Positions 17,052 through 49,018 of a stretch of DNA of 64,000 nucleotides are shown in pieces. Within the stretch, counting starts at the first letter, position 1; the number at the start of each line of letters is the position of its first letter. Source of the stretch: a virus (lineage: Duplodnaviria > Caudoviricetes); IMG/VR virus record IMGVR_UViG_3300005077_000712, positions 1 to 64,000 of that record; one strand, written 5' to 3'. Under the pieces are notes generated by a model. The model worked only from the letters and a program-made list of their open reading frames with translations. It searched no databases and was not told where the DNA came from. A program made the position numbers and the translations under genes.

Positions 17052-17073
17052 GTTTTAATCTTTATAAGATTTT

Positions 17074-17330
17074 CAATTTACTAAATTCTTTAATTATTAA
17101 ACTGATTGGGGATTAATGTAGATGCAAAATTAAAATCTCTATAATTTAATTTTACTTCTATAAAAGTATTATAATATTCACTTACAGGTTTTCCTGCTGG
17201 AGCATATTAATAATCTTTTATAAGGCTTTTATAGGCTTAATCCACTTATACAATAGAGATTGACGTGAATCAGTTTCTAATCTACTAAAGCCATTTCCCC
17301 AATATAAAAATTAAAGAATTAAGTAAGTTG
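17074..17330 (-). ncRNA. RNA with a terminal stem homologous to 16357..16507
   Basis: caatttactaaattctttaatt/aattaaagaattaagtaagttg; inner TTGGGGA/TCCCCAA stem; starts just after a promoter. Confidence 0.6.
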
Positions 17331-17341
17331 GTTATACTAAT

Positions 17342-17370
17342 ATTATAACAGTTTTAAATCTTTTTGTCAA
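17342..17370 (-). promoter_or_regulatory. Sigma70 consensus promoter
   Basis: TTGACA-17-TATAAT. Confidence 0.9.
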
Positions 17371-30210: not shown

Positions 30211-30364
30211 GCCTCAATTCACATTCAAGTTCTTCTCTTTTAAAGTCTTCTTTCTCTCTATTAACTGCATATCTTTCAATTCTTTCTCTTTCTGAAAAGG
30301 ATTTATTCATATAATTTTTCATAGTTTTCTCCTTTGTTTTAATATTCATTAAGTCCATAAGCAT
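30167..30364 (-). CDS. Hypothetical protein
   Basis: Short charged ORF; true start probably MKNYM. Confidence 0.4.
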   Translation of the reverse strand: MLMDLMNIKTKEKTMKNYMNKSFSERERIERYAVNREKEDFKREELECELRHENEFSNNNKYKSV

Positions 30365-31244
30365 CTTGTCTTACATCAAAAGTAAATAGACCAAGTTTAT
30401 CTTGCCAACATTCTGATAATACTTGAATCCTATCATCAAAAACACCAACAACATTAAACTTTGGTTCTATGTATTTTCTATATAACTCTTCTTTAATAAT
30501 TGAATCTCTTCTGTTATCTCCTTCCTCTCTCATATAAAGATAATCATTATCAATGAGATAATAATTTAACCACATAGCTGTTTCACTTCTATATTTTGAA
30601 TCTCTACCTGAAAGAACAATTATGATATAGCCTGATTTTTTTAAAGCATTTAAAATACTAATAACTGGATATATAGGAAGATCCATACCAACTTTAGTAC
30701 CATCAAAAATATCTCTATCAGGATGTTTCAAAGCTAATGTACCATCTATATCAAAAATAAATGCAGGTTTTTTATCTGATTTAACTATATAAGAAAAATC
30801 ATAACAATCTCTTTCAGGTTTATTTGCTATATATTTTTTATAAGTATTTCTTATAACTCTTTCACCAACAGAAAATGGTCTTCGTTTATCTCTTTCAATT
30901 GCATCATCAAGAGATACATCAAATCTTTTTATTTCAATATCTACTTTTGGAGATATAGTTTTAATAAACTCTATATTTTTTTTAAGAGTTTTTGGGTTAA
31001 GATTCATTTCATCTATAACAAGATTATGACCATCCCTAAGAATAGTTTTTACATTTTCTCCCCAAATTTTTTGAACAAGTTTCTCTGACTTATAAGAATA
31101 ATCATCTATCATGTGTCTAATAGCATCACGATTAACTCTTTTATAAGTTTTATTAGTTTTAAGAAATTCAGTTACCCAAGTAGATTTACCTGAGCCTTGT
31201 ATTCCTTGAGTAAGTATAACTTTCATTTTTATTCCTCTGTCCAA
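30339..31244 (-). CDS. pseT: Polynucleotide 5'-kinase/3'-phosphatase (T4 PseT-like)
   Basis: GIQGSGKST P-loop, RDAIR, HAD motif DIDGTLA, SGR, FDDR. Confidence 0.9.
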   Translation of the reverse strand: MDRGIKMKVILTQGIQGSGKSTWVTEFLKTNKTYKRVNRDAIRHMIDDYSYKSEKLVQKIWGENVKTILRDGHNLVIDEMNLNPKTLKKNIEFIKTISPKVDIEIKRFDVSLDDAIERDKRRPFSVGERVIRNTYKKYIANKPERDCYDFSYIVKSDKKPAFIFDIDGTLALKHPDRDIFDGTKVGMDLPIYPVISILNALKKSGYIIIVLSGRDSKYRSETAMWLNYYLIDNDYLYMREEGDNRRDSIIKEELYRKYIEPKFNVVGVFDDRIQVLSECWQDKLGLFTFDVRQDAYGLNEY

Positions 31245-32314: not shown

Positions 32315-32662
32315 CTATTCTTCCTTTAAATATTTAATTTCATCTTCTTCACAAGCAATAATTTTATATTCTATAGCCTTAATAAAACTTTGATTAACAA
32401 TATCAATCACTATTTTATCTATCTGCATATTAGTCAATCTATTTTTATAATATTTACCTCTTTGAGAAATAACATATTCAAATGTTTCTGGATTACACCC
32501 TCCTCCAAATGTAGCATTATTAGAATCAATTATACTACATATCTCATCTATAAAACAATCCATTTGTTTATTAGATAAAATAGTTTCAAAAGTTCCTTTA
32601 ATAGCTATATAAGGTTCAAAAAATTCTTTTATTCTTAATTTTTTTCTCAATCTCTTTTTCAC
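32315..32662 (-). CDS. YggL/DUF469-like protein
   Basis: KKRLRKKLRIKEF N-terminus; FGGG motif; GTG start with SD. Confidence 0.65.
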   Translation of the reverse strand: MKKRLRKKLRIKEFFEPYIAIKGTFETILSNKQMDCFIDEICSIIDSNNATFGGGCNPETFEYVISQRGKYYKNRLTNMQIDKIVIDIVNQSFIKAIEYKIIACEEDEIKYLKEE

Positions 32663-32715
32663 TTGTAAGTTCCTTTTAAAAAGATTATACGCACTTCTTA
32701 TAATTACTGTTATGG

Positions 32716-32931
32716 CTAATTGCCTTTTAACTTCTCCAATCGCTGAATCATTATCGCTCTGTATTTATTTGCACCTTCAATCGCTCTTACTGTCTTTATG
32801 TTGCAATATGGTAGGTTTGTGCTTCTGTCTGTAAACCACTCATCAACTTCCTGTTCGGTAGGCAACATAGCCATAACATCGGTTATATTCAATACCTTGC
32901 TTTCGTCTTGTTTTTTAGTTTTGTTTTTCAT
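32716..32931 (-). CDS. Cassette ORF, hypothetical
   Basis: N-terminus VLNITDVM is encoded by an attC arm. Confidence 0.65.
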   Translation of the reverse strand: MKNKTKKQDESKVLNITDVMAMLPTEQEVDEWFTDRSTNLPYCNIKTVRAIEGANKYRAIMIQRLEKLKGN

Positions 32932-33002
32932 ATCAAGTTTTTTTTATTATTCAAAATTTGTGTTTCAAAATCGGCACTAAATATAGCCGAGAAACGTTAG
33001 GC
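32871..33002 (-). repeat. attC-like site with the next ORF start in its loop
   Basis: ccataac-atcggttatatt...aatatagccga-gaaac-gttaggc. Confidence 0.75.
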
Positions 33003-33266
33003 GACATGCAACCTTAATCTATACATAATATCTATAAATTTGACAAGATTTTCCGTGCTTAAAAACTTAATCGGAATTTCTCCAGCATCATACATTTTTA
33101 CTATTTCCCGCACGTCTCCTAACACGGCATTTGAGTCCGCTTCGCACATTGCCTCAATTATTACATCAGCTAAAAATCCGAACACTTTCGGCGGTATTTC
33201 CTGAATGTTACCATCACCGTCATTTGCAAAATTTTTTATTATATTTAATAACTTTTCTCTATACAT
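32997..33266 (-). CDS. Cassette ORF, hypothetical
   Basis: Stop inside GCCTAAC. Confidence 0.65.
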   Translation of the reverse strand: MYREKLLNIIKNFANDGDGNIQEIPPKVFGFLADVIIEAMCEADSNAVLGDVREIVKMYDAGEIPIKFLSTENLVKFIDIMYRLRLHVA

Positions 33267-33318
33267 AACTTTCTTCTGTTAATTCGGCAACGTCTCAAAT
33301 GCCGGGTAATGTTGTACG

Positions 33319-33600
33319 TCATTTGAGCTTTGCCCACTTTGTAATATTCTTAAACGGCTCAAACCGTGAATTATCAAAACAATACATTCCTGCACACAAA
33401 TAAACCACTGGTCCACCCTCATCACATACCCATGCTTCAACGGTAAACTTTGACATCGCACATCCACCAATTCCCCCTCTCGGACCAGCTGTAGACCCGA
33501 ATGTTTCTGGATAAGCATAATAATCTAAATCCATATACTCGACTTTTCGATCCTTAAGTATATCAATAACTTCTTGCGGTGGTTTGTTTTGATAATTCAC
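33319..33600 (-). CDS. Cassette ORF, conserved phage hypothetical
   Basis: YPETFGSTAGPRGGIGG motif; GTG start after AGGAG. Confidence 0.7.
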   Translation of the reverse strand: MNYQNKPPQEVIDILKDRKVEYMDLDYYAYPETFGSTAGPRGGIGGCAMSKFTVEAWVCDEGGPVVYLCAGMYCFDNSRFEPFKNITKWAKLK

Positions 33601-33645
33601 GGCCTTTCTCCTTTCATGTATTTTATTCTGTGACGCTCAAACGAC

Positions 33646-33726
33646 GCACAACACTCGCTAAACGCTTCGCTTCGCTCGGCCTTCGGCACATGGCTTCGCC
33701 ACGTCGTTTAGCTCTGCATGTTGTAC
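33646..33726 (-). repeat. attC site
   Basis: gcacaac...ctaaac...gtttag...gttgtac with R and L boxes. Confidence 0.85.
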
Positions 33727-33739
33727 GAAAGACGCACGA

Positions 33740-33943
33740 CTAATACTCTATTGGTTCATCCTTGTATTCATAAGTGTAATTACCGGTTCCCGTCCCGCTC
33801 GTTGTTAATACGCTATGAAGTGCCTCATGCCCGCAAATAACACATCGCTTGAATGACGAGTCTCCGTGCCATACATGTTCAGGTTCTACGGTTGACCCAC
33901 ATTTTTTACACTTATAACTTTGTTCAATCTTTATATACATAAA
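33740..33943 (-). CDS. Cassette ORF, Zn-ribbon protein
   Basis: MYIKIEQSYKCKKC...CVICGH; GGAGG SD. Confidence 0.7.
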   Translation of the reverse strand, partial: FMYIKIEQSYKCKKCGSTVEPEHVWHGDSSFKRCVICGHEALHSVLTTSGTGTGNYTYEYKDEPIEY

Positions 33944-33964
33944 TCCTCCTTTCGTGCGTCCTTC

Positions 33965-34055
33965 GTACAACAAAGCGTGAAACGAAAAACGACTTTATTT
34001 TATTTACAACACTTTTACTATTCAGCGTTCTTCGTTTACGCTTGAATAGTTAGCG
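33965..34055 (-). repeat. attC site
   Basis: gtacaac-aaagcgt(g)aaacgaa...ttcgtttacgctt-gaata-gttagcg with an extrahelical base. Confidence 0.8.
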
Positions 34056-34279
34056 AACATTGCCATCGACTTGTTGCTTGTACCAATCCGCTCCCTCGCA
34101 AAATATGTGCATAGAAATACTTTCCTCAACGCCATATCTTTTGGCCAGCCACTGATATTTTTAATACGTTGTTTATTCAAATCCCCCGCATAATGGTCGG
34201 GCAACGATCCGCTAACACGGCGTAAAACGAAAGCCGTCTTTATTATCTCAATTATCTTTCTGTACCATGTAGTTTTCAT
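34022..34279 (-). CDS. Cassette ORF, hypothetical
   Basis: GGAG SD; spans attC arms. Confidence 0.45.
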   Translation of the reverse strand: MKTTWYRKIIEIIKTAFVLRRVSGSLPDHYAGDLNKQRIKNISGWPKDMALRKVFLCTYFARERIGTSNKSMAMFANYSSVNEER

Positions 34280-34334
34280 CTTGATTAAACTCCTTGTATT
34301 ATCGGCCTATCGTTTACGCCGGAATAGTTAGGCG
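34210..34334 (-). repeat. attC-like site with ORF start in its loop
   Basis: cgctaac-acggcgtaaaacga...tcgtttacgccgg-aata-gttaggc. Confidence 0.75.
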
Positions 34335-34534
34335 ACATTGCCAAACCCTTTTATGTATTTAATACATTCTTGGAATCCAGCCACAAAATATACTTGTTCC
34401 TTTTCTGATATATTTAGTCCCTCGCTTATTCTTACTGCAATACCACCTGCTTCATAAATATTTGGCAACGGTCGCCTAACAGGGCGTATATTCAATTTCG
34501 CCCTTATTGCGTTAGTAGTATTACTTGACCTCAT
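34328..34534 (-). CDS. Cassette ORF, hypothetical
   Basis: Stop inside GCCTAAC; AGGGGA SD. Confidence 0.6.
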   Translation of the reverse strand: MRSSNTTNAIRAKLNIRPVRRPLPNIYEAGGIAVRISEGLNISEKEQVYFVAGFQECIKYIKGFGNVA

Positions 34535-34600
34535 AAACTTATCCCTTTAATATGATTATTTCTATCATGCGAAACTAAACATACGCCCCATCAGTTATAT
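34474..34600 (-). repeat. attC-like site with ORF start in its loop
   Basis: gcctaac-agggcgtat...atacgccc-catca-gttatat. Confidence 0.7.
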
Positions 34601-34608
34601 GACATGGC

Positions 34609-35148
34609 TTAACTCTGGCTCGCCTTCCGTGGCTCGCTTTTTATTATCCTATCAAAACATATTTGTTTCGGCAATAAACCTCTACAAATATAAACACTCG
34701 AAAACGGAGGATTCAAACTCGGTTTTTGTTCTGTATAATCTTTAAAATATGCCACCCTTTTATTAAAATAAAGTATTTCAAAATCATTTGCTTCAAACAT
34801 AGAAAATCTTTTTTCAGACTCGAATAATCCTACAACTCCAACAAGCATAGCAAATTTTTTATTCAACTTAAACAGTCTATCAAATACTTCGCCTTTTAAA
34901 CTATAAGGAGGATTTGAAATAATAACATCACAATCAATATCAATATTAAAAAAATCATCACCGTTTGAAATATGCGTATTTTTTACGGCATTGCCATTAT
35001 TCTTTAGCATCTTTACAAAGTTACTTTCGTTCGTATCAAATGGACACCATACTGCTAAATTTGAATTTACATATTTCAATAAAGGCTCAATAGCATATTC
35101 AGGTGTATAAAATTCATCCTGTTTTTTTGTAATTAAGTCAAGTTTCAT
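34609..35148 (-). CDS. Cassette ORF, adenine methyltransferase-like protein
   Basis: DEFYTP, WCPFD, DFF and ISNPPYS motifs; start MKLD after GGAG. Confidence 0.75.
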   Translation of the reverse strand: MKLDLITKKQDEFYTPEYAIEPLLKYVNSNLAVWCPFDTNESNFVKMLKNNGNAVKNTHISNGDDFFNIDIDCDVIISNPPYSLKGEVFDRLFKLNKKFAMLVGVVGLFESEKRFSMFEANDFEILYFNKRVAYFKDYTEQKPSLNPPFSSVYICRGLLPKQICFDRIIKSEPRKASQS

Positions 35149-35215
35149 AAACTCTCCATACGTGTTCGGCATCCTGCCTCACACTAAATATATTTTTTGT
35201 TACAATCGCCACGTC

Positions 35216-35281
35216 ATATAACAACGGGTAAGCGTTCGCTTCACACACCCTTCGGGTGTCGCTTACCCTGTTCAGTTGTAC
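35216..35281 (-). repeat. attC site
   Basis: atataac-aacgggtaagcg...cgcttaccc(t)gtt-ca-gttgtac. Confidence 0.85.
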
Positions 35282-35291
35282 GAAAGACGGC

Positions 35292-35498
35292 TTAACCCCC
35301 ACCATAAACATAAAAACCTTCTGCATCTTTAATCTCTCTCGGCTCAAGCGATAAATCAGCATGGGTATATCCCAACTTTTCAAGAACAAGTTTTCTCGCT
35401 TGCTCTGAATTTTCAGCATATGCGAAGGCTATGCCTGCTGTATAATCTCTTAATACATTTTCCCATACATATAATTTTAATTTACTTATTGCTTCCAT
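35292..35498 (-). CDS. Cassette ORF, hypothetical
   Basis: KLYVWENVL...AFAYAE...YGGG; followed by an attC. Confidence 0.7.
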   Translation of the reverse strand: MEAISKLKLYVWENVLRDYTAGIAFAYAENSEQARKLVLEKLGYTHADLSLEPREIKDAEGFYVYGGG

Positions 35499-35556
35499 AC
35501 TAAATTACCTCACTTTATATTTTACTTTCAATGCGTATTCTCATAGCCTTGAATAG

Positions 35557-35826
35557 TTAGCTAAAATGCTCGCTAACTTCTGCCATTTCAATATCATATT
35601 CTAATTCCATTTGCTTAGCTCCATACCCATTAGACATCCAGTCTATAATATCTGTAAGTTTAGAAACTCTTTCTCGCAATGCTCGCACTTCAGCTAACAC
35701 GGTGTCATGCGTCATTGATTCCCTACATTTATTACAATATATAATTCCTATTGGATCACCATAATCTTTTCCACATTTAACATAATCGCTATGACAATAT
35801 CTTAATAAGGCACCACATCCCTTCAT
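35557..35826 (-). CDS. Cassette ORF, hypothetical
   Basis: GGGAGG SD; stop inside AGCTAAC. Confidence 0.65.
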   Translation of the reverse strand: MKGCGALLRYCHSDYVKCGKDYGDPIGIIYCNKCRESMTHDTVLAEVRALRERVSKLTDIIDWMSNGYGAKQMELEYDIEMAEVSEHFS

Positions 35827-35883
35827 AATATCCTCCCTTGAATATCAACGACGCATACGCAGTCTCAGTTAGGCGAAAGACGG

Positions 35884-36120
35884 CTAAACCTTTCGTATTT
35901 CAAAATTTATTATCGAATATTTAAAATAAGCAATAAACAGTCTATATAATGCTATTATCAATAATTCTGTACTATAGATTCTCCACCCCGGATCGCCAAT
36001 GTTTACACATAAAACTTGATATTTCCATCCATAACTTTCTCCTTTTAGTCGCCGTCCTTCGCCCAACACTCGGCAAACGCCATGAGTACACAGCGTCTGC
36101 CTCAGCATGTTAGCAGCCAT
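35884..36120 (-). CDS. Cassette ORF, hypothetical (start uncertain)
   Basis: N-terminal part runs through an attC. Confidence 0.35.
   Translation of the reverse strand: MAANMLRQTLCTHGVCRVLGEGRRLKGESYGWKYQVLCVNIGDPGWRIYSTELLIIALYRLFIAYFKYSIINFEIRKV
36061..36115 (-). repeat. attC site
   Basis: gcccaac-actcggcaaacgc...gcgtctgcctcagcat-gttagca. Confidence 0.75.
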
Positions 36121-36352
36121 TTAAGACAAAAAACTTTTTAGCCTTATCTCTGAACTTGCCAACTCCAGATAATCTTACCATAAAATCATCACCTATGGCT
36201 TCAATAAACTCACCTTCTTTTAAGTGTGGTTCATCTCCAATCGCACTTTCATAAATCGGATAGAATAAACGGCTGCTAACAGCAGGTATATTCAATGCCG
36301 AGCATCGAGTGTAATCAGAGTTTAGTTTTTCAATCAAGCCTTGTGTTGTCAT
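36110..36352 (-). CDS. Cassette ORF, hypothetical
   Basis: ALNIPAVSS is encoded by an attC arm; stop inside TGCTAAC. Confidence 0.65.
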   Translation of the reverse strand: MTTQGLIEKLNSDYTRCSALNIPAVSSRLFYPIYESAIGDEPHLKEGEFIEAIGDDFMVRLSGVGKFRDKAKKFFVLNGC

Positions 36353-36413
36353 ATAATTTTGTATTTCAAATTTGGCACTAAATATACCTGCTCATACGCT
36401 TAAAAAGTTAGCA
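36274..36413 (-). repeat. attC-like site with ORF start in its loop
   Basis: tgctaac-agcaggtatatt...aatatacctgct...gttagca; same family as 32871. Confidence 0.75.
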
Positions 36414-36424
36414 GAAATAACCGC

Positions 36425-36602
36425 CTAATCTTTAGTGATAATCTTATATGTATAGTAATCACTATCTTTAAACATATTCATTCTATTCTTATATAAATCT
36501 TTTAAAGATTGCTCAACTCTTTCTTTTGCTTTCTTGCCACGAAATATTTTATATAATTTATATTCATCAAATGGATTTACTCGTCTTAATATTCTATACT
36601 CC
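36425..36602 (-). CDS. Cassette ORF, hypothetical
   Basis: MEYRILRR start after GGAGGGAG. Confidence 0.55.
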
Positions 36603-36633
36603 ATATACTCCCTCCTTTGATGGCGGTTACATC

Positions 36634-36687
36634 CGCTAACATCGAGCAAGCGACATTGAAACGATCACCTACCTTTTTTAGTTAGAC
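36634..36687 (-). repeat. attC-like site, degenerate copy of 36893
   Basis: cgctaac-atcgagcaagcgacattgaaacgatcacctacc...tta-gttagac. Confidence 0.65.
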
Positions 36688-36691
36688 GTAA

Positions 36692-36858
36692 TTATTCGCC
36701 AACTTTTTCTGATGATTTAGCTCCACCGCACATCCCCATTATCATTGATAATTGTCCTATCATCTGCAATCCAAGTTCTTCATGACTTTTACTTTTCGGT
36801 ATGCTATTTATTGCACACTCGCATAACTCAATTATTTTATCATATACATCATCTTTCA
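36692..36858 (-). CDS. Cassette ORF, hypothetical
   Basis: MKDDVYDK start after GGAGG. Confidence 0.55.
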
Positions 36859-36892
36859 TTTTAATCCTCCTGTAATAATGGCGAATAACTAC

Positions 36893-36946
36893 GCCTAACA
36901 TCGGGCAAGCGACATTAAAACGGTCGCCTGCTCTGTTTAGTTAGGC
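36893..36946 (-). repeat. attC site
   Basis: gcctaac-atcgggcaagcgac-attaaaacg-gtcgcctgctctg-ttta-gttaggc. Confidence 0.8.
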
Positions 36947-37156
36947 GAAACGGCTTAAAAATATTTCCATCATTTTGACCGCCTCTTCTCTATCACTGTT
37001 TTTTTCTCCCTCTGATAAATATTTATATTCTGTTTTCATTTGTCTTTTCCATCTATCAACTGCCCACTTCGGAATAACTAAATTTTTCTCTCCGTCTGGT
37101 TCTGCTAATGTTGGCTCAAGATAAATCTCATAGCACTTGCTAAATAAATACTGCAT
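36941..37156 (-). CDS. Cassette ORF, conserved phage hypothetical
   Basis: IPKWAVDRWKRQMKTEY...EKNSDREEA; stop inside GCCTAAC. Confidence 0.7.
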   Translation of the reverse strand: MQYLFSKCYEIYLEPTLAEPDGEKNLVIPKWAVDRWKRQMKTEYKYLSEGEKNSDREEAVKMMEIFLSRFA

Positions 37157-37165
37157 CCATCCAGA

Positions 37166-37418
37166 CTATTGACTATGCGCAAATGCGGCCAGCTCCTCTT
37201 TTAGTTCAGCCGTATCGCATAACACAGCATTAGACGAAAGAGGCTTTTCGCATTCTACCGCTTTATCCAGTATCCTATTCAATGGATCAGAATAATCTTT
37301 ATTTTTTAAATACTCTATATCTTTCTCCATCCTTTCTATTCTCTCTGTTAACGCTCGCACTTCAGCTAACAGAGATATTTGATATAATTTTAAAATAGAT
37401 TCTCTCAAATCATCCATA
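37166..37418 (-). CDS. Cassette ORF, hypothetical
   Basis: MDDLRES start after GAGGAGGG. Confidence 0.55.
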
Positions 37419-37460
37419 TATTCCCTCCTCAAATTTTCGCATATTCTCAATATGTTGTAC
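37364..37460 (-). repeat. Degenerate attC-like site
   Basis: agctaac...gttgtacgaaagac; weak arms. Confidence 0.5.
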
Positions 37461-37671
37461 GAAAGACTGCTCAATCTTTTTTATATTTTAATTCTAACTC
37501 TTTATAAAAACTACATATTGCACAACAATCTAACCCACAATCACAAAATGTTCGTTTGCCAGTTTTAATATATTCTTCTTCAATCCAATCTTGATAACAA
37601 GCCCAACATTCTCCGTGTCCACAACCGCATCTCTTTTCCATTAGCTAACCCCCTTCTATTCGTTGCCCTTC

Positions 37672-37739
37672 GTACAACACTTGCTAAATGCCACTTCGCT
37701 ACATGGCTTTGATACGTTGTTTAGCTCTGCATGTTGTGC
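37672..37739 (-). repeat. attC site, same family as 33646
   Basis: gtacaac-acttgctaaa...gtttagctctgcat-gttgtgc. Confidence 0.85.
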
Positions 37740-37750
37740 GAAATTGCGCC

Positions 37751-38125
37751 TCACTCACTGCTCTTAAAATCTTCTTCTGGACTAAACCAATCGTTGTTAA
37801 CGATATGACCTATCGCATGCACCTTGCTATGCTCGCACTTTACCCGTATTGTTTTACCCTTCAACTGACTCCATTTTGAAACTTCCGCTATCTGCATTAC
37901 CCTGAAAATAAAATGTCCCGCTACAGACTCTAACTTGTAGTGCGTAAAGCTTTTCGGCAAATATAGCGCATACCCTCCAAACCCCTGACCGATCCCGCCA
38001 TAATTAAGATTCACCCACGCAGACAGACACCCGTGGTCATCATTTGTAATTTCCGCTGACTCAATAATCGCATTTCTGATTTCTAATTCCATTTCTAATC
38101 TCCTATTAATTAAGCAACGCCTCAA
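37751..38125 (-). CDS. Cassette ORF, conserved phage hypothetical
   Basis: DHGCLSAW...QGFGGYAL; followed by an attC; true start probably MELEIR. Confidence 0.7.
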   Translation of the reverse strand: MRRCLINRRLEMELEIRNAIIESAEITNDDHGCLSAWVNLNYGGIGQGFGGYALYLPKSFTHYKLESVAGHFIFRVMQIAEVSKWSQLKGKTIRVKCEHSKVHAIGHIVNNDWFSPEEDFKSSE

Positions 38126-38137
38126 ATACCATCTCTG

Positions 38138-38776
38138 TTAGTCGGCATTGCTTAAATATTTTTCTAATTCTTTTTCAAGTGCTATTACAATTCTCTCCAA
38201 ACTTGCTCTGGTATGCTCCCTGAAATTATCTTCTCGTAACAGTATTTTCATTGTATCAAGTTGAGTCATAAGATGGATAAAATCAACTTGTTCTATCAAA
38301 ACTTTGCCTAATAAAGAATCATGAGTTTCAGCTTTCGGCAAATTTTGAGGAATTACTTTATTTATTAAATCTTCTATTCGCTGACATAGTTCTGGTCTAT
38401 TATCAGCATAATCTTCCAAAAGTCCATTTACAATAATTTTTGATACTTCTCTTGAATCTATTTTTTTATCCCCTCTTCTATACTCGTTTAAAAAATCATA
38501 GACATCTGACATTGATTCAAACTGTTTATGATAATCTTTAAATTTTTCATTAAAAGAATTTAATTGATCTTTTTCACATTGTTTTTCAAATTCAGGATCT
38601 TCAAGTTTTTTAGTATAAAAATCTGTTAGTCCACTACATATACCACATCCACCGTCACCATATTTCCCATGTTCGCACCAACCATTATCTGTTGATAAAT
38701 CTTTTTCCTCTTGCATTGCTTTATCTATTCCTTTTTGAACTTTAGATTTATCATATTTTAAATCTTCTATTTTCAT
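38138..38776 (-). CDS. Hypothetical protein
   Basis: 212 aa; stop inside GACTAAC. Confidence 0.65.
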   Translation of the reverse strand: MKIEDLKYDKSKVQKGIDKAMQEEKDLSTDNGWCEHGKYGDGGCGICSGLTDFYTKKLEDPEFEKQCEKDQLNSFNEKFKDYHKQFESMSDVYDFLNEYRRGDKKIDSREVSKIIVNGLLEDYADNRPELCQRIEDLINKVIPQNLPKAETHDSLLGKVLIEQVDFIHLMTQLDTMKILLREDNFREHTRASLERIVIALEKELEKYLSNAD

Positions 38777-38780: not shown

Positions 38781-39869
38781 TTATTGCTTCTCTTCTTTCA
38801 ATAAAAATTCAGGATTAATTACTTTAAAACTTGTAAATGGAAGATCTATACTCCTAAACACAAGCCCTTCTCTATCTTTAAGAGTATTAAGGACACTCTT
38901 TCCATAACTTTCTTTTACAACACTATTTACATCAGAAAAAATAAATTTTTTTGTATCAATAATTGGAACAAGTTTTAAACCTGTTTCGTCTATAAATCTA
39001 ATAATTTCATTATATTGAAAATATTCATTTTTGTCAATATTAAATACATTAAATATATAGAACTCATTTTCTTTTAACTCATAAGGATTACCTTGAATCT
39101 TTGGCCCAATAATTTCACCTTGAATGGCAATATTCATTTTATGCTTTTTACTATATTCTTTAAGAATAAAATCAATATTATATTTTTTAGCTATATTAAA
39201 ATAAGCATTATCTTTACTATTTGAAAGATTAATATTTCTTGAAGCAAATCCAAATTTACCTTTATTAAACCAAAAAGAAGAACTCATACCATCAAGTTTT
39301 TCAGTTAAATAAAATACCCTGTTCTGATTATTCCATATAATAGATGGAATAGATTGTATTCTTGTTTCATCAGTTTTTCTAATAAATGATGGGAATCCCT
39401 TCTCTTTATCCTCAAAAAATTTAAAATAAATTGTTCTAAATACTTTAAACTTAAAAAAGAATTTAAAGAGTTTAGATTTCTTATGATTAGTATTAAAAGC
39501 TGTTTGTTCTTCAACTAATTGAGGATCATATTTTTTAATACCAAGTATATCAGTAATATCAACACCTTCTTTAGCAACTATTTTAAAGCCACTATCTCTT
39601 AATGATTGAATAGGAATTATAAGTCCCTGACTGATCTGACCACGAAGTTTAATTATTCTAACACGATATTTTCTTTCTTCAAGAAATTCAAACATAGGTA
39701 TTTGAGGGACTATAGAATCAGTCTCCATATAGCAAACAAGATCACCAACATTAAATTCACCTTTTTTAACTACAACTTCCCATCCAAGGACTTGAGCTAC
39801 TTCAATTTTATCTGCTCCTTCAATTGGACGTATTGATATTATTTTTTGTATGGTTGCTAATTGTCTCAT
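38781..39869 (-). CDS. RNA ligase, DRB0094/Rnl5 family
   Basis: N-terminal IRPIEGADKIE OB-like domain; KTDETR, TEKLDG, QGEIIG, EGLV and FKVIN motifs. Confidence 0.88.
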   Translation of the reverse strand: MRQLATIQKIISIRPIEGADKIEVAQVLGWEVVVKKGEFNVGDLVCYMETDSIVPQIPMFEFLEERKYRVRIIKLRGQISQGLIIPIQSLRDSGFKIVAKEGVDITDILGIKKYDPQLVEEQTAFNTNHKKSKLFKFFFKFKVFRTIYFKFFEDKEKGFPSFIRKTDETRIQSIPSIIWNNQNRVFYLTEKLDGMSSSFWFNKGKFGFASRNINLSNSKDNAYFNIAKKYNIDFILKEYSKKHKMNIAIQGEIIGPKIQGNPYELKENEFYIFNVFNIDKNEYFQYNEIIRFIDETGLKLVPIIDTKKFIFSDVNSVVKESYGKSVLNTLKDREGLVFRSIDLPFTSFKVINPEFLLKEEKQ

Positions 39870-39871: not shown

Positions 39872-40225
39872 TTATACCTCATTTATTATTTCATTTGCAA
39901 TTAATAATGCACATTGTTCACATCTTGTTACTAAATCAATTTTTGATTTATTTATATCAACTTTATACTTTCTTTGGTATTCTGATAAATAAGAAATATC
40001 AGGGATTATATAAGGACTTTTATGATTCATTCCTCTTCTTAACATTTCTTCTGCTAATTCATCATGTCTTGTTTGCATTGATTCAGGCTCAATTTGACCT
40101 AATTCAATTCTTTTATTTATAGAGTGCTTTTTCTCGAAGTTATGCTTATGTTTATGAATTTCTCCATGTTCACCAATGAGATGTTTATTACAAAGTAATT
40201 TTGGGTCTACCATCCACATTCTCAT
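39872..40225 (-). CDS. Pyrimidine-dimer DNA glycosylase (DenV-like)
   Basis: MRMWMVDPKLLCNKHLIGEHGEIH...EMLRRG. Confidence 0.75.
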   Translation of the reverse strand: MRMWMVDPKLLCNKHLIGEHGEIHKHKHNFEKKHSINKRIELGQIEPESMQTRHDELAEEMLRRGMNHKSPYIIPDISYLSEYQRKYKVDINKSKIDLVTRCEQCALLIANEIINEV

Positions 40226-42098
40226 TTATTCCTAACCTATCCTCAATAATTTTACAATATTCTTCACTTAATTCACAACCAATTGCATTTCTATTTAATT
40301 CCTTTGCAACAACTAATGTAGTACCTGCACCTGCAAATGGGTCAAGAATTGTATCATCTATATATGAAAACATTTTTATACATCTTTTTGCAAGTTCTTT
40401 TGGAAACATTGCAGGATGCCCAATTTTTTTCATCTGTGTCTCAGGTGGAAATTTCCACAAAGCTAATGACCAATCTATAAATTCTTCTTTAGTTAAATCA
40501 GTTTCACCTTTTCTGTTTAACTTCTTATCTTCTTTTGCAAATACTAATATATGCTCAAAAGGTGTTGGAAAGGATGGGCAAGATGGCGACATAAATGAAC
40601 CCCAGGAACAATTATGGAATATTACTTTACCACTATAACTTTCATCTTCTTCTACTTGCAAATTGCAAACATCAATGTTTTCCACATATTCTTTTGTAAT
40701 TTCTTTTATTTTATAAAAGCCATAATGACTTCCTATTTTGCTTTTATTATATCTATATTTAAAATTATTATTTATATCTTCATTTAAGACATTTTTTTTT
40801 ATTTTATCAATAAATTTTCCATATATTCGTAACACATAAGCATCACTATTACCTTTTATAATTCTTCCACTTTGTAACATTGTATCTCTATTATTTTTTT
40901 TATAAACAGAAGATAATATTTTAAGTCTTAATAAAATATCTCTTATTTGGTAACATAGTTCTTTAGAAATGGAAACATAACCAACTTCTGTTTCACTAAT
41001 ATACCCATCACTTCTTATTAATCCTTTTATTAATTGTTTTTGTAAAAAAAATGGTGCTTGAAATAAAAATGGATGTATCTTTTTATTTTTTGCTAATTTA
41101 CCACCTAAAACTTCTAAAATTTTAGGCAAAACTTTTTTTGATGATATACAAATACGATTTAAATTTTCTCTTTTTTCATAAAAAAAACTCCAATTAAATT
41201 CTTTACAAATATTTTCAACATCTTTACAATAATTCGTTTCATTTAGACCAAAATCTATTCTTATTGTTGTATCTTTATGCGTAGATCCATCACCTATATA
41301 ATAACCTAATAATCTAAAAAAACCTTCAGAGTAATAATTTATTTTTTCGTTAGTTATTTTAGATAATCGTTCATTAAAATTTTCAACATTCCCATGATAT
41401 TGAGTTGTATATTTTGGAACTATTGCATACCACTCACCGTTATTATATAATTCTTCTGGAGTTTTCCACAAAAAATTCCAATTTACTCTTTTTTTTGGAG
41501 TATATTTTCCACATCTTCTTTCTAATGGGGAAACATAAATTTTATGACCTTCAGTTAATACAATATCTTCTCCAAAACTTGATTTTATCTTATAAATAAA
41601 CCCACTATATTTATTTCTAAATATATTTTCAACTTTTTTAAATCTTCTATTATGAGTTAAAACTTTATCACCAATTTTTATATTTTGTATTTCTATATAA
41701 CCATTATCTGTATTTATCAATTCATCAGGTAATAAACACCTATTCCCAACTTGAGACTTTTCCCATATAATATGTGTCATTGGTATATATGTTAAATTAA
41801 CCATAAATTGAATTATATCAGAACTAGTCGGGACTCCACCGTTGCGGCCATCACCAATATTTATAACTACACGACCACCTTTAACAAGTTTCATATATAT
41901 AAGAAAAAATATAGATTTAAGCCAATTAATATATTCTTTATGGTCTTTATTATCATTATAAAGATTATAAGGATTTTTATTATATTTATTATTTCCTAAA
42001 TCAACATTGTATGGTGGAGATGTAACAACTAAATGCACACTATCATCTTGAATAGTGTGCAAAGTTTTAAAGCAATCTCCTTGTAATATTTGTATCAT
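40188..42098 (-). CDS. DNA N4-C/N6-A methyltransferase containing an intein
   Basis: VTSPPYN, HPAMFP and DPFAGAGTT motifs; start MIQIL overlaps the upstream stop. Confidence 0.88.
   Translation of the reverse strand: MIQILQGDCFKTLHTIQDDSVHLVVTSPPYNVDLGNNKYNKNPYNLYNDNKDHKEYINWLKSIFFLIYMKLVKGGRVVINIGDGRNGGVPTSSDIIQFMVNLTYIPMTHIIWEKSQVGNRCLLPDELINTDNGYIEIQNIKIGDKVLTHNRRFKKVENIFRNKYSGFIYKIKSSFGEDIVLTEGHKIYVSPLERRCGKYTPKKRVNWNFLWKTPEELYNNGEWYAIVPKYTTQYHGNVENFNERLSKITNEKINYYSEGFFRLLGYYIGDGSTHKDTTIRIDFGLNETNYCKDVENICKEFNWSFFYEKRENLNRICISSKKVLPKILEVLGGKLAKNKKIHPFLFQAPFFLQKQLIKGLIRSDGYISETEVGYVSISKELCYQIRDILLRLKILSSVYKKNNRDTMLQSGRIIKGNSDAYVLRIYGKFIDKIKKNVLNEDINNNFKYRYNKSKIGSHYGFYKIKEITKEYVENIDVCNLQVEEDESYSGKVIFHNCSWGSFMSPSCPSFPTPFEHILVFAKEDKKLNRKGETDLTKEEFIDWSLALWKFPPETQMKKIGHPAMFPKELAKRCIKMFSYIDDTILDPFAGAGTTLVVAKELNRNAIGCELSEEYCKIIEDRLGINENVDGRPKITL
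40611..41738 (-). mobile_element. Intein (376 aa) with LAGLIDADG endonuclease
   Basis: NR|CLLPDELI...LGYYIGDG...GLIRSDG...VIFHN|C. Confidence 0.9.
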
Positions 42099-42475
42099 TT
42101 TGCAAAATTCCATTTACTTGAATAATCTATAGTTTCGTATTCACCAAGTTTTATTTCTTGATTTATATTTTGTAAAACTATTTGTAACGCTATTTTTGTT
42201 TCTAAATGCAATTTATCTAATTCTTTTTCCTGTTCTTCTGTAAGATCGCTATCATCATCTTTTGATCTCAATTCAAGTATTTCAGCTATATCTCTAATAA
42301 CATCAGAATTACCATAAGGACGTTTACAATTTATTGAAGGCGCACCATATTCACAGTCCCACCAACTTACATACATATTTCTTAATAGTATAAGATGTTC
42401 TTCTCTTAAAATAAATGTTTTTTTATTCATATCTTCCTCTTTTTTGATAAAAAAAATGTCGCACTGGTGCGACAA
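42095..42475 (-). CDS. Conserved phage hypothetical protein
   Basis: APSINCKRPYGNS motif. Confidence 0.7.
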   Translation of the reverse strand: MSHQCDIFFIKKEEDMNKKTFILREEHLILLRNMYVSWWDCEYGAPSINCKRPYGNSDVIRDIAEILELRSKDDDSDLTEEQEKELDKLHLETKIALQIVLQNINQEIKLGEYETIDYSSKWNFAK

Positions 42476-46000: not shown

Positions 46001-49000
46001 ATGGCAGAAATATTAAGTAGAAATGATGTAAAACAAGCATGGAAACAAATAGATCGTAAGTTAAAAAGAGTTACGACAGATACAGAAATTGTAGGTGAAC
46101 TTAATACTTCATTAGTCCCAACACATATGCTTCCTCTTGAATTAGATGATAATTATACTGCTTTAGGCGCATTATCAGCAAACAATATATCTCAATTACA
46201 AGAACAACTTGAACTTGATAAATTAAATAGAACAACAAGATATGATAGATTACAAAGTGCTATGGAACATCCTGAAATTGATGGTTCTCTTTCTATATAT
46301 GCTGATGAAGCAACTACAGAAGACCAAGATGGTATTACTATTCATGTTCAACATCCTGACCAAAAGGTTCAAGAGATTGTTGAACAATGTTTTGAAAGAA
46401 TAGGCATTGAAGAAAAGGCATGGCAAATAGTAAAGAATTTTTGTGGTTATGGTGATGAATTTTATGAAGTTGCAATTTCTAAAACTGTTGATTCAATTTT
46501 AAAAATTGATAAACTTCCTAGAAAAGCAGTTGAAAGGGTTGAAGAAAATAATATATTAAAAGGTTTTAAATTTAATAACGAATCACTTGATAGTGAAAAT
46601 CAATTTTTTACATACCAAATTAATTATCAATCACAGCAAGAACAAGAAGAAGAATTAATATATCCATTTAGAATACTTCATTTTAAAACTAATTCAGATA
46701 AATATGGAGTATATGGTCAAGCAATTATTGATACAATTATTTCTACTATTGACCAATTAAAAATGATGGAAAAGGCAATGGTTGTTGCAAGGGTGACAAG
46801 AGCTGCCGAAAGAAGAATATATACAATTGATGTTGGAAATTTACAAGGTGAAAAAGCTATTAAATATGCTAATCAAGTTGTAGCTAATTTTAAAAATAAG
46901 AAAAAACTTAGTTTTGGTTCAGAAACATCAAGAACACTTGATTTACAAAAAGATGTTTTTGGAACTGTAGAAGACCTTGTAATTCCTAAAAGACAAGGAT
47001 CTGAAGGAAATACAATTACTACATTAGAACAAGCTTGCCTAAGTTTAGAAACAAAAATTGATTTATTAGACGGAAGAAGTTTACCACTAAAAGATATAAT
47101 TAAAGAATATAATGAAGGTAAAGAAAATTGGGTTTATTCTTGTGATCCTATAAATGGTAAAATAGAGCCAGCATGTATTAGTTGGGCAGGCGAAACAAGA
47201 AATAATGCAGAAGTTTTAGAAATAACTTTAGACAATAATGAAAAAATAATTTGCACACCAGATCATAAATTTCCTATAAAAGATATTGGTTTTATAGAAG
47301 CAAAAGATTTGAAAGAAAACCAATCTATGATTCCTTTATATAAAAGAAAGTCTAAAGAAGGATATGAAGAAATTTTTAATAATTATAATAAAGAATGGGA
47401 ATTAACTCATAGACTAGTGCGAAAACATATTGATTTGCCAGAATATATTTTTAATGAAAGTTATAAAGATAATCCCAAAACAATAACACATCACAAAAAT
47501 TTTAAAAAAGACGTTTATAATAGAGTTGGACTTGGTTTAATCAAATATAGAAAAGAAAATAAAAATTGGCATGATAATTATCCATCACCACCTGTATGGG
47601 ATAACCAAAAAGTTATATTTGACCAAAAACTTTTAAATTGGTTTATAGATATTGTTGCAAGCAATAAATTGTATAACAAAGAACAAGCTGTAAATTATAT
47701 ACAAAGTAATTGTAATAATTTCCTTAATTATTTTTTTGAATTAAATAAAAAGCAAGATGGAAAAATATCAAAATTTGTACCACATTTTTCAATAAATTAT
47801 TTACAAAAGCTTTTAATATTTGGAAATTTTAATGGGTGGAAAAATTTTAAAGATTCTTATAATTATAATAATCATAAAATAATTTCTATTAAAACTTTAA
47901 ATGAAAAAATAAATACGGGAACAATAACAGTTAACCATAGGTTCCATACATTTGCTTTAAGTTGTGGTATTTTTACTAAAAATTCAAATTTAGGGGAAAC
48001 ATCGGATCTTGAATTTTTAAGAGATAAAATATTTCCTGCTCTTGGTATTCCAAGACAATATTTTTATGATGATACATTTGCAAACGCAAATACAAATCTT
48101 TCATCTAAATCTGTTCCATTTGCTAAAAAAATTAAAAGAGTACAAAGAGCATTTTTAACACCTTGTTATAAAATAGCAATCATTGAATTAAAATTAAAAG
48201 GAATCTCTAATGAAAAAATTAAACAATTAGTTCTTTTAATGAATAATCCATCTAATATAGATGATAGAGAAAAAATAACTCTTGAAACTGAAAGATGGAA
48301 TTTAATTGCTGCTATTAAAGGTTTAAATGCTGAAAAAACATTTTTTCCTGATTATCTCATCTATCAAGATTTTCTTAAAATGAATAAAGATGAAATAGCA
48401 ATGTTAATGAAATTAAATATTATGCAAGATAATGGTCAAAACCCATTTGATATATTTGATATTGATGAAAAACCTGAGCTTGCAAAAGATTTAAATTTGC
48501 AACCAGGAGCAGGTGGCGGCGAAGCAGGTGCTATGGGTGGTGGTATGCCTATGGGTGGTGGAGAAATTGGAGGAGAACTTGGTGGTGGAGAAGGAACAGA
48601 GATAGGTGGTGGAGAAGAAGTTGAAACTGAAATACCACAAGAAGTTAGAGAAAAATTAGGACCTCCTCCGACTGAAGGTGGTGGCGAAAAAGCAGAAGCC
48701 AAACCTGAAACAGCTTCAGCAGATATTTATAAAAAAGATAAGAAGATTTATGCAGATGATTTAAAGAAACAAGTTGAAATAAAGAAAAGTAAAATTTTAA
48801 ATAAATTATCAAGTTTTATGGAACAACATAAAATTGAGATTGAAATTGAAAGAGATGAAGATATTTATAGGGAGATGTTATTAAAAACTAAAAGGGTTTC
48901 ATTTTCTGAAATATTTCTTAATGGCCAATTAGATGGATTAGATAAGATTAAAAAAGATATAGTAATTTATGATGAAGAATATGAAAGAATGGATTTTATA

Positions 49001-49018
49001 AAAAAAGACATCAGTTAA
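46001..49018 (+). CDS. Portal protein (T4 gp20-like) with intein and Gly/acidic tail
   Basis: HPEID, RAAERRIYTIDVGNL, IPKRQG, ALGIP motifs. Confidence 0.88.
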   Translation: MAEILSRNDVKQAWKQIDRKLKRVTTDTEIVGELNTSLVPTHMLPLELDDNYTALGALSANNISQLQEQLELDKLNRTTRYDRLQSAMEHPEIDGSLSIYADEATTEDQDGITIHVQHPDQKVQEIVEQCFERIGIEEKAWQIVKNFCGYGDEFYEVAISKTVDSILKIDKLPRKAVERVEENNILKGFKFNNESLDSENQFFTYQINYQSQQEQEEELIYPFRILHFKTNSDKYGVYGQAIIDTIISTIDQLKMMEKAMVVARVTRAAERRIYTIDVGNLQGEKAIKYANQVVANFKNKKKLSFGSETSRTLDLQKDVFGTVEDLVIPKRQGSEGNTITTLEQACLSLETKIDLLDGRSLPLKDIIKEYNEGKENWVYSCDPINGKIEPACISWAGETRNNAEVLEITLDNNEKIICTPDHKFPIKDIGFIEAKDLKENQSMIPLYKRKSKEGYEEIFNNYNKEWELTHRLVRKHIDLPEYIFNESYKDNPKTITHHKNFKKDVYNRVGLGLIKYRKENKNWHDNYPSPPVWDNQKVIFDQKLLNWFIDIVASNKLYNKEQAVNYIQSNCNNFLNYFFELNKKQDGKISKFVPHFSINYLQKLLIFGNFNGWKNFKDSYNYNNHKIISIKTLNEKINTGTITVNHRFHTFALSCGIFTKNSNLGETSDLEFLRDKIFPALGIPRQYFYDDTFANANTNLSSKSVPFAKKIKRVQRAFLTPCYKIAIIELKLKGISNEKIKQLVLLMNNPSNIDDREKITLETERWNLIAAIKGLNAEKTFFPDYLIYQDFLKMNKDEIAMLMKLNIMQDNGQNPFDIFDIDEKPELAKDLNLQPGAGGGEAGAMGGGMPMGGGEIGGELGGGEGTEIGGGEEVETEIPQEVREKLGPPPTEGGGEKAEAKPETASADIYKKDKKIYADDLKKQVEIKKSKILNKLSSFMEQHKIEIEIERDEDIYREMLLKTKRVSFSEIFLNGQLDGLDKIKKDIVIYDEEYERMDFIKKDIS
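47036..47983 (+). mobile_element. Intein (316 aa) in the portal
   Basis: EQA|CLSLETKIDLLDG...CTPDHKF...HTFALSCGIFTKN|S; degenerate HNH-like centre. Confidence 0.85.

Follow-up and report, generated by a model that had tools for sequence, protein, structure and literature searches.

Described cassette arrays and the locus in the window

Clusters of attC sites that lack an integrase, known as CALINs (Cury et al. 2016, PMC4889954), have been reported 17 times in phage genomes (Qi et al. 2023, PMC9892861), and an earlier remark that integron arrays are unusual in phages therefore needs qualifying. Integron arrays and CALINs consist of co-oriented, mostly single-gene and promoterless-looking units, separated by folding sites with invariant AAC...GTT triplets and variable loops; in integron arrays the two ends of a unit are mutually complementary, CALINs have no integrase nearby, and several phage CALINs carry a methyltransferase. 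The locus described here shares all of these features. Two other systems also bear on it: the promoter-early stem-loops (PeSLs) of T4-type phages, which lie between small variable genes and accompany the shuffling of units (PMC2839356, PMC4122927), and cassette rows in the early region of Baltic Flavobacterium phages (morran9-1, lillamy, stinky and others), whose genomes were published by Nilsson et al. 2020 with the cassettes unmentioned (PMC7077304).

The window is a stretch of 64,000 nucleotides from a large, T4-like phage. Among small variable genes between conserved genes, its minus strand carries 14 hairpin sites plus two remnants, interspersed with about 16 small ORFs that share one orientation, in good agreement with the first-pass annotation, which had described about 13 hairpins with short co-oriented ORFs. 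The block starts at an AAC box within the stop of a native gene and finishes at an AAC box with no trailing hairpin. Its features, in the direction of the genes, are:

32709-38143, minus: whole cassette array, from the AAC box of the gene A stop to the last AAC box, 5.4 kb
38138-38776, minus: gene A, 212 aa, native phage gene, GC3 0.15
38143-38137, minus: stop TAA of gene A in GACTAAC, upstream array edge
38112-38136, minus: first short hairpin piece, before cassette B, degenerate GTT box at 38118-38112
37751-38092, minus: ORF B, 113 aa, phrog_30930 match, more than 1600 metagenomic homologs at 70-85% identity
37672-37739, minus: site B/C, family 1
37471-37641, minus: ORF C, 56 aa, Cys-rich, cassette body 37678-37454
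37364-37460, minus: site C/D, RBS and ATG of ORF D in the loop
37166-37417, minus: ORF D, 83 aa, LAEVRAL module after the core at 37370, spans a remnant site (37235-37217)
36941-37156, minus: ORF E, 71 aa, cassette body 37223-36940
36893-36946, minus: site E/F, 54 nt, family 4
36692-36859, minus: ORF F, 55 aa, cassette body 36899-36681, own-end pairing 21 nt
36634-36687, minus: site F/G, family 4
36425-36604, minus: ORF G, 59 aa, cassette body 36640-36407
36274-36413, minus: site G/H, 140 nt, start of ORF H in the loop
36110-36352, minus: ORF H, 80 aa, reads through the core at 36280, cassette body 36280-36109
36061-36115, minus: site H/I, hairpin
35868-36067, minus: cassette body I, no convincing ORF, AT-rich interior
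35692-35874, minus: site I/J, 183 nt, loop codes for the 42-aa Cys-rich N-terminus of ORF J
35557-35826, minus: ORF J, 89 aa, zinc-ribbon-like N-terminal part and LAEVRAL module joined across the core at 35698
35562 to about 35425, minus: remnant site before ORF K, no GTT box
35292-35498, minus: ORF K, 68 aa, phrog_34232
35216-35281, minus: site K/L, hairpin
34609-35148, minus: ORF L, EcoRI-type N6-adenine DNA methyltransferase, cassette body 35222-34594
34474-34600, minus: site L/M, start of ORF M in the loop
34328-34534, minus: ORF M, 68 aa, cassette body 34480-34327
34210-34333, minus: site M/N, 5-nt/1-nt spacer type, start of ORF N in the loop
34022-34279, minus: ORF N, 85 aa, cassette body 34216-34049
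33965-34055, minus: site N/O, 5-nt/1-nt spacer type, hairpin
33740-33940, minus: ORF O, 66 aa, zinc ribbon, cassette body 33971-33720, own-end pairing 20 nt
33646-33726, minus: site O/P, family 1
33319-33600, minus: ORF P, 93 aa, cassette body 33652-33311
33117-33317, minus: site P/Q, 201 nt, loop codes for the first 47 codons of ORF Q
32997-33266, minus: ORF Q, 89 aa, cassette body 33123-32996, no homolog found among 5.8 billion proteins
32871-33002, minus: site Q/R, 18-mer and 14-mer in its two arms also present in one morran9-1 site
32716-32931, minus: ORF R, 71 aa, cassette body 32877-32709
32715-32709, minus: terminal half-site CCATAAC, array end, no hairpin after it

Read on the minus strand, the sites have the form xxxxAAC ... 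GTTxxxx. The AAC and GTT of the RYYYAAC...GTTRRRY frame proposed earlier are invariant, while only about half of the sites strictly match RYYYAAC, GTACAAC and TGCTAAC being common among the boxes; the motif GTTRKRC reaches 1.83 per kb in the block versus 0.22-0.27 per kb outside it. Three previously named site families hold up (33646 with 37672, 86% alike; 36634 with 36893, 82%; 32871 with 36274, 71%), as does the placement of ORF stops in CTAAC-type boxes, with TAA inside xCTAAC in 6 of the approximately 16 ORFs. Extra unpaired bases do exist, but they occupy the spacer that separates the R box from the following stem, where the 5' arm is 3-4 nt longer, and are not bulges in the L box. In-array hairpins are of moderate stability (-1.5 to -24.5 kcal/mol; site C/D is unfolded, at +0.5), and seven units have their start codon and RBS inside the site loop.

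The block is GC-richer than its flanks, as had been seen (0.35-0.40 versus about 0.26), and GC3 averages 0.31 in the cassette ORFs (range 0.16-0.47), against 0.11 for the genes of the phage itself and 0.09-0.15 for the small genes on either side of the block. By codon composition, the cassettes are foreign to the phage. We consider it likely that about 16 mobile gene cassettes make up the block, assembled by site-specific recombination at the AAC/GTT core of folding (hairpin) sites, so that it would work like an integron cassette array.

Complementary cassette ends

Cassette bodies begin with GTT and finish with AAC, and their two ends are complementary over 10-21 nt. Scored for pairing, a cassette's own ends average 12.9, compared with 5.3 for the two half-sites of one in-array hairpin and 5.1 for non-self pairs overall; the observed sum was not reached in any of 20000 permutations, and the best own-end-type pairs of the whole contig concentrate in the array. 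Genuine integrons used as positive controls behave similarly, with own-end scores of 10.0 in Vibrio phage p16 (versus 5.3/4.8) and 9.3 in Shewanella phage M16-3 (versus 5.0/4.9). Such complementarity is the trace left by a circular intermediate: the cassette was once a circle, whose two ends folded with the hairpin piece into a single long stem-loop.

Inverted repeats of 10-21 nt around every body are also what miniature transposons with terminal inverted repeats, mobilised by a DDE or HUH transposase, would display. Nevertheless, the ends have no target-site duplications, the repeats differ from unit to unit apart from the GTT/AAC core, all units face the same way and adjoin hairpin pieces, and a search of the contig for Y1 HUH transposases (PF01797) found none. 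We regard transposons as the least probable of the explanations considered.

Most window cassettes carry a G.T wobble (C.A on the opposite strand) at position 11 from the core. The pattern WWWWWWWWWWUWWWW is present ungapped in 10 of 15 cassettes, and in two more with a bulge. Among the non-Watson-Crick positions of the end stems, 17 of 22 are sense-strand G.T pairs, with G always at the 5' end and T always at the 3' end, and the summed folding energy is -151.5 kcal/mol for the sense strand versus -130.5.

Site family and unit mobility in relatives

The same WWWWWWWWWWUWWWW pattern is found in 13/13 cassettes of the cultured Flavobacterium phage morran9-1, in 5/5 cassettes of a Spirochaetota MAG prophage, and in the Flavobacterium contigs G072:C32, G080:C35 and G142:C20, including all 10 cassettes of the first. 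On sequence grounds, the array sites are best placed in a family apart from attC, common to Flavobacterium phages, Flavobacterium genomes and the MAG prophage, and recognizable by about 15 nt of end pairing, the position-11 wobble, asymmetric spacers and a start codon that is frequently in the loop. Besides this end signature, the Baltic phage rows and the window have in common the 5-nt/1-nt spacer geometry, ORFs that begin inside the loop and encode V-L where they cross the GTT box, and an EcoRI-type methyltransferase cassette (50% amino-acid identity). The Baltic phages differ in being siphoviruses with small genomes of about 38 kb and uniform sites, whereas in the large phage of the window the sites fall into at least four families, the end stems are longer and the cassettes are far richer in GC than the phage itself.

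Sister phages of morran9-1 that are 99% identical show mobility: the methyltransferase unit is missing from them, or a different unit occupies a new position. These are whole hairpin-plus-gene units, and the junctions fall exactly at the 3-nt AAC core between otherwise dissimilar sequences. A search for a close relative of the window phage found none, so that mobility is seen in the morran9-1 sisters and not for these particular cassettes. Cassette L and a MAG prophage cassette have a 16-mer in common at the start and a 20-mer at the end; homology stops no more than 2 nt from GTT and AAC, and the two carry different cargo. The first-pass reading is supported in part, namely as to a cassette array made by site-specific recombination at an AAC/GTT core, units foreign to the phage, and a locus that provides a shuffleable store of accessory genes.

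The relatives and the array termini lead us to infer that crossover takes place at the AAC box of the gene-sense strand. If so, a cassette consists of a hairpin followed by its gene, in mirror image to the order in an integron, and new units would insert after an AAC. Sites M/N and N/O share homology that starts at the upstream cassette end, covers the hairpin and breaks off precisely at GTT, and the LAEVRAL module of ORF J likewise breaks at GTT; both observations point to exchange on the GTT side too.

Two further readings were weighed. Pairing of cistron ends, together with hairpins at the RBS and start, could control RNA processing or translation, the DNA array being incidental; the constant orientation of the G.T pairs, the seven start codons and RBSs in loops and the somewhat better folding of the sense strand fit such a role. 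We nevertheless find it very unlikely as the whole explanation, since it does not account for the foreign composition, the AAC-precise loss and transposition of units in near-identical phages or the cassette ends common to unrelated phages, and the array elements match no Rfam family. An RNA-level function could be an added layer instead of a rival. The other reading, that PeSL-type composites of terminator and early promoter separate small genes shuffled via ordinary homologous recombination, draws on the T4-like nature of the phage, in whose kind PeSLs are documented, on the position of the block and on the recurrence of related site families. However, the block has no promoter-terminator composite: the 30 sigma-70-like promoters do not amount to an enrichment over the 27.7 expected, and terminators (5 versus 2.8) are not clearly enriched either. 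Ordinary recombination would also leave the fixed AAC/GTT core, the cassette-specific end pairing and the position-11 wobble unaccounted for, while the relatives' junctions are site-specific rather than homologous and the cassettes are foreign in composition. We hold this explanation to be extremely improbable.

Departures from attC and the putative recombinase

The first-pass annotation had taken the sites to be classical attC served by IntI. Indeed, a CALIN derived from a host chromosomal integron, its attC sites recombined by IntI as folded bottom strands, would explain the invariant triplets, the imperfect hairpins of variable length, the co-oriented ORFs and an own-end footprint matching that of genuine integrons; the genuine class 1 attC estX also has a GTACAAC box, and attC clusters in phages have precedent (PMC9892861). 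Yet an attC covariance model that we built and trained on genuine attC, and which gives 17-55 bits to class 1 and Shewanella attC left out of training, finds no attC in the array, in morran9-1 or in the MAG prophage, the array yielding only R-box-only matches of 4.5-7.9 bits. The geometry also differs: array spacers are 5-8 nt long in the AAC arm and 0-5 nt in the GTT arm (a single nucleotide there in the 5-nt/1-nt class), against 5 versus 4-6 nt in genuine attC, and the L stem has no extrahelical bases. Genuine cassettes lack the conserved position-11 G.T within some 15-21 nt of end pairing, and ORFs of the array, unlike theirs, frequently have their start in the loop and continue across the GTT box. 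In addition, crossover in relatives lies at the gene-strand AAC, with the hairpin before its gene. A search of the 89-kb contig (about 41% of the genome) for IntI or any tyrosine, serine or HUH recombinase found none. We therefore judge an IntI-served attC cluster unlikely.

The only recombinase near a related array is encoded by a 265-aa gene 4.8 kb away, which scores 67 bits against TIGR02249, far below the cut-off of 265 and the 394 and 494 bits of genuine IntI. A link to a Xer-like enzyme may be drawn from this one gene, which is perhaps just a prophage integrase. For the array of mobile cassettes favoured here, the enzyme would be a tyrosine recombinase other than IntI, and its source may be the 59% of the phage genome absent from the contig, the host or a co-infecting phage. 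Host takeover and anti-restriction would be the roles of the cargo, which comprises a DNA methyltransferase and small phage-type proteins.

The phage and its cassette block

The window comprises the initial 64 kb of a viral contig of 89,208 nt (completeness ~41% by CheckV), which belongs to a very divergent T4-like phage. The contig carries genes for a gp23 capsid protein, a gp20 portal protein with an intein and a ribonucleotide reductase, together with about 20 tRNAs, a tmRNA and a group I intron; its GC content is ~26%, and the capsid protein is at most 26% identical to that of any cultured relative. We found no close relative of this phage, and a search through the RNA ligase and polynucleotide kinase genes flanking the block returned one unrelated phage of 48% GC and nothing more.

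Genes flanking the cassette block (32709-38143, minus strand)
38781-39869, RNA ligase gene, on one flank of the block
32315-32662, YggL-like gene, on the other flank, directly after the last cassette
30339-31244, polynucleotide kinase gene, on the same flank as the YggL-like gene

The ligase combines a PHA02142 OB domain with an RNA_ligase domain and, with the polynucleotide kinase/phosphatase encoded at 30339-31244, brackets the cassette block; the two look like a T4-style tRNA-repair pair with a variable locus in between. The YggL-like gene, which matches the YggL family of 50S ribosome-binding proteins, is native to the phage (GC3 0.11). Elsewhere in the window, the gp20-like portal gene (46001-49018) contains its intein and a 641-aa N6/N4 DNA methylase (40188-42113) contains a LAGLIDADG domain, and the phage is therefore rich in selfish insertions. 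A TROVE-domain (Ro60-like) protein is encoded at 11036-12655, adjoining the tRNA, tmRNA and group I intron region. At 17012-17349, in the tRNA region, a 19-nt near-palindrome (GTTATA...TATAAC) occurs in two copies 337 nt apart; both are AT-rich and, by composition, unrelated to the array.

On its minus strand, the block holds 14 complete sites, each a hairpin running from xxxxAAC to GTTxxxx, with two remnants, a terminal AAC half-site and about 16 small ORFs that all point in the same direction. The array of hairpin sites and co-oriented ORFs described in the first-pass annotation is therefore real, and comparison of the sites bears out the site families proposed there. The RYYYAAC...GTTRRRY boundaries it assigned hold at their cores: inverted R''/R' boxes with AAC and GTT triplets are present in 14 of 14 complete sites, the full RYYYAAC consensus in only about half. 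GTTRKRC is enriched about 7-fold inside the block. As had been noticed, the block is also richer in GC than its flanks, rising from ~0.26 to 0.35-0.40, a rise that sits partly in the sites (0.34-0.57 GC) and also in codons. The third-position GC content (GC3) of the cassette ORFs is 0.31 (range 0.16-0.47), against 0.11 for 17 long genes of the phage and 0.09-0.15 for small genes flanking the block; the cargo is thus of foreign and mixed origin.

Recognisable cargo, with ORFs lettered A-R in gene order on the minus strand (A native, B-R in the array), comprises an EcoRI-type N6-adenine methyltransferase (ORF L), two PHROG families without assigned function (ORFs B and K) and small zinc-ribbon-like proteins. 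ORF B (37751-38092) belongs to a very conserved family of small viral proteins, with more than 1600 homologs at 70-85% identity in phages of 37 to more than 50% GC; those homologs that were traced to viral and metagenome contigs sit in ordinary phage operons that lack sites of this kind. ORF N (34022-34279) has no stop in its own AAC box, and reads through to end within the next hairpin piece.

No Rfam family was found in the block at gathering and E-value thresholds, a crude folding-energy search for AAC...GTT hairpins did not separate it from the AT-rich background, viral contigs scanned for exact copies of a 15-mer and a 19-mer taken from the sites yielded chance-level single matches or none, and the plasmid collection matched only at the level of the methyltransferase. 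If the units were regulatory cassettes of the PeSL type known from T4-type phages, each junction should combine an intrinsic terminator with an early sigma-70 promoter; promoter-like sites numbered 30 against 27.7 expected, and terminator-like sites 5 against 2.8. This reading is unlikely because neither class is enriched.

Cassette ends and relatives of the site family

Every cassette body opens with GTT and closes with AAC, and the 10-21 nt at its start are reverse-complementary to the sequence at its own end, the end sequences varying from one cassette to another. We scored 15 starts against 16 ends, and the observed sum for own ends was reached in 0 of 20,000 permutations.

Mean end-pairing scores in the array
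Start and end of one and the same cassette: 12.9
Both halves of a single hairpin in the array: 5.3
All starts with ends of other cassettes: 5.1

When the whole contig was scanned, nearly all top end pairs fell in the block. As positive controls, the same script was run on the genuine, phage-borne integrons of Vibrio phage p16 and Shewanella phage M16-3 (PMC9892861), where own ends scored 10.0 (vs 5.3/4.8) and 9.3 (vs 5.0/4.9), respectively. The footprint in the window is that of integron cassettes, whose two ends were once joined, with the exchange point at the inner edge of the box. These comparisons are strong evidence that the block was built by site-specific recombination of circular units.

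The end stems carry a further signature. Among their 22 non-Watson-Crick positions, 17 are G.T on the gene strand, always with G in the 5' end and T in the 3' end. In 10 of 15 window cassettes (ungapped), the G.T lies exactly at position 11 counted from the G of GTT, in otherwise unrelated surrounding sequences, and in two further cassettes the wobble sits beside a one-base bulge. Neither this wobble nor anything similar was found in the genuine cassettes of the control integrons.

The same features occur in morran9-1, a cultured Flavobacterium phage that we reached through a weak DNA match of the window's methyltransferase. Its early region is a row of 13 cassettes, in all of which the ends pair over 13-15 nt (mostly 15) and position 11 is G.T. 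The two phages share a 5-nt/1-nt spacer geometry, ORFs that start in the loop and a V-L read across the GTT box, and the methyltransferase cassette of morran9-1 encodes a protein 50% identical to ORF L. An 18-mer and a 14-mer in the two arms of one morran9-1 site also recur in the window site between cassettes Q and R; AT-rich sequences often have 14-mers in common, so this similarity is no more than suggestive.

Compared with morran9-1, sister phages of 99% identity show differences of whole units: lillamy9-1 and lillamy9-7 are without a unit consisting of a hairpin and the methyltransferase body, and lillamy9-7 has another unit at a new position. In comparisons of morran9-1 with lillamy9-7, lillamy9-1 and stinky9-1, all unit junctions coincide exactly with the AAC box, and the sequences joined there are otherwise dissimilar. 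The elements might instead act purely at the RNA level, but such a role leaves these precise DNA junctions unexplained. The sense-strand orientation of the wobbles allows for an RNA role, which may exist as an added layer upon recombination. Methyltransferase content has been linked to plating efficiency in phages of the morran9-1 type by Nilsson et al. 2020, with the cassettes unmentioned (PMC7077304), and we found no published description of integron-like cassettes of this Flavobacterium-phage type.

The site family extends beyond cultured phages. A degenerate pattern derived from the window's commonest site family led to a prophage that encodes terminase, tail, SSB and clamp proteins, on a contig assigned to a Spirochaetota MAG. 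All five of its cassettes carry the same end signature, including the position-11 G.T, and one shares a start 16-mer and an end 20-mer with window cassette L; homology between these two cassettes gives out within 2 nt of GTT and of AAC, and the cargo differs. The shared ends show that units of this site family move between unrelated phages (26% vs ~53% GC backgrounds). Among 201 sampled Flavobacterium genomes, several short contigs consist of nothing but such arrays; the signature is present in all 10 cassettes of G072:C32, and also in G080:C35 and G142:C20. In the window, as expected for this cassette type, the spacer on the AAC side is the longer one (5-8 nt vs 0-5 nt).

Comparison with classical integrons and candidate recombinases

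Integrons, the textbook bacterial device for stockpiling and reshuffling genes, are defined by the integrase IntI and by attC sites of one architecture. The array resembles their cassettes in its inverted AAC/GTT boxes and complementary cassette ends, and departs from classical attC sites in spacer geometry, the unbulged next stem, the position-11 G.T and its lack of a match to an attC model. We built this covariance model (R1) on 20 genuine sites, taken from aadA1 and from Vibrio and Shewanella, and set its R and L pairs explicitly. It found untrained genuine sites at 17-55 bits, including the class 1 sites of aadA2, psp, cmlA1, estX and a dfrA cassette and a separate Shewanella cluster, and failed on two class 1 sites. 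In the window, R1 gave no match, and once filters were disabled it matched R boxes alone, at 4.5-7.9 bits; it likewise gave no match in the arrays of morran9-1 and the MAG prophage. By this model, the array does not have the R-UCS-L architecture with extrahelical bases. In genuine attC sites, 5 nt are followed by an L stem with bulged bases and then by 4-6 nt on the opposite side. In the window's sites, the AAC-side spacer measures 5-8 nt (14 at one site) and the GTT-side spacer 0-5 nt, and the next stem is without bulges. These sites vary too much in length and geometry for a good alignment among themselves. The first-pass identification of classical attC sites is thus not upheld by our home-made model. 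Clusters of attC sites in phages have already been published (PMC9892861).

The proposed partner of such sites, an IntI integrase (TIGR02249), is likewise absent from the 89-kb contig, which covers ~41% of the genome. The same stretch contains no match to PF00589 (controls 14/14) and no tyrosine recombinase, serine recombinase or Y1 HUH enzyme. Read as transposons, the units lack target duplications, and a search of the contig for a transposase of the Y1 HUH type gave no match. An Xer-like tyrosine recombinase was found neither on the window's contig nor in morran9-1, and no tyrosine recombinase was found on the short Flavobacterium contigs that carry arrays. The MAG contig does encode a predicted 265-aa, Xer-like tyrosine recombinase, 4.8 kb from the array, with no close homolog in cultured phages. 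Judged by its TIGR02249 score of 67 bits (cut-off 265; genuine IntI proteins 394 and 494), this putative enzyme is not an integron integrase; it may serve the cassettes or be the integrase of the prophage.

Polarity, possible module exchange and implications

The array opens immediately behind an AAC box in which a native gene has its stop codon and closes at an AAC box with no hairpin beyond it, and 7 of 16 ORFs have their start codon in the loop of the upstream hairpin. These features fit a layout in which each hairpin is owned by the downstream gene. Given the junctions at AAC in the sister phages, a cassette in the morran9-1 family is a hairpin followed by its downstream gene, the mirror image of an integron cassette.

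The opposite edge of the hairpin has also left traces. The sites between cassettes M and N and between N and O are alike from the end of the upstream cassette through the hairpin and diverge at GTT. The LAEVRAL module, C-terminal in ORF J, is found in no fewer than seven metagenomic proteins, each time behind an unrelated N-terminus; the break, at ORF J residues 38-45, coincides with the GTT core, and ORF D, an in-window paralog of this module, has a different leader. Scans of viral contigs and genome contigs with the ORF J module returned nothing. In the MAG prophage (L072, G001:C6), two adjacent cassettes at 117358-117899 have identical 20-nt ends, one core and related C-terminal modules ending in LPDPPAFD, and their loop-encoded N-termini are unrelated. 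The G|TT junctions anticipated by the first-pass annotation thus find a divided answer: junctions between the Flavobacterium sister phages lie at AAC, and in the window homology breaks at GTT in M/N, N/O and ORF J. Since the layout points to the AAC side and homology breaks at GTT, both hairpin edges appear to have been exchange points over evolutionary time.

Module swapping across the core is therefore a live possibility. The loop would provide a ribosome-binding site, a start codon and a module for the N-terminus, the reading frame would run on across the GTT box into a module for the C-terminus, and recombination at the core would exchange protein modules as well as whole genes. We put forward only tentatively, and as a somewhat unlikely reading, that the arrays represent a widespread, IntI-independent integron analogue in phages of several phyla, with reading frames assembled across the recombination core.

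The array follows integron logic: its cassettes are circular units, its core is a constant 3 nt and its genes are stored in a row. It lies in a large phage of lytic type, very different in composition from the cassettes. The site design of the array escapes our attC model, and its polarity appears reversed. Because the site family is shared by cultured phages and genomes of Flavobacterium and by a prophage assigned to another phylum, phages may trade genes by a dedicated recombination system. The traded genes may serve anti-restriction and host takeover, and current integron finders would not see such a system. Cultured carriers exist in morran9-1 and its sisters, which grow on Flavobacterium LMO6 and LMO9, so that the enzyme, the strand used and the cut position are directly testable.

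Outside the window, at G000:C1:66616-66911, an isolated, matched GTT.../...AAC pair of 18-nt ends lies 295 nt apart, with mismatches that favour the plus strand; the pair may mark a lone cassette at another place in the phage genome.
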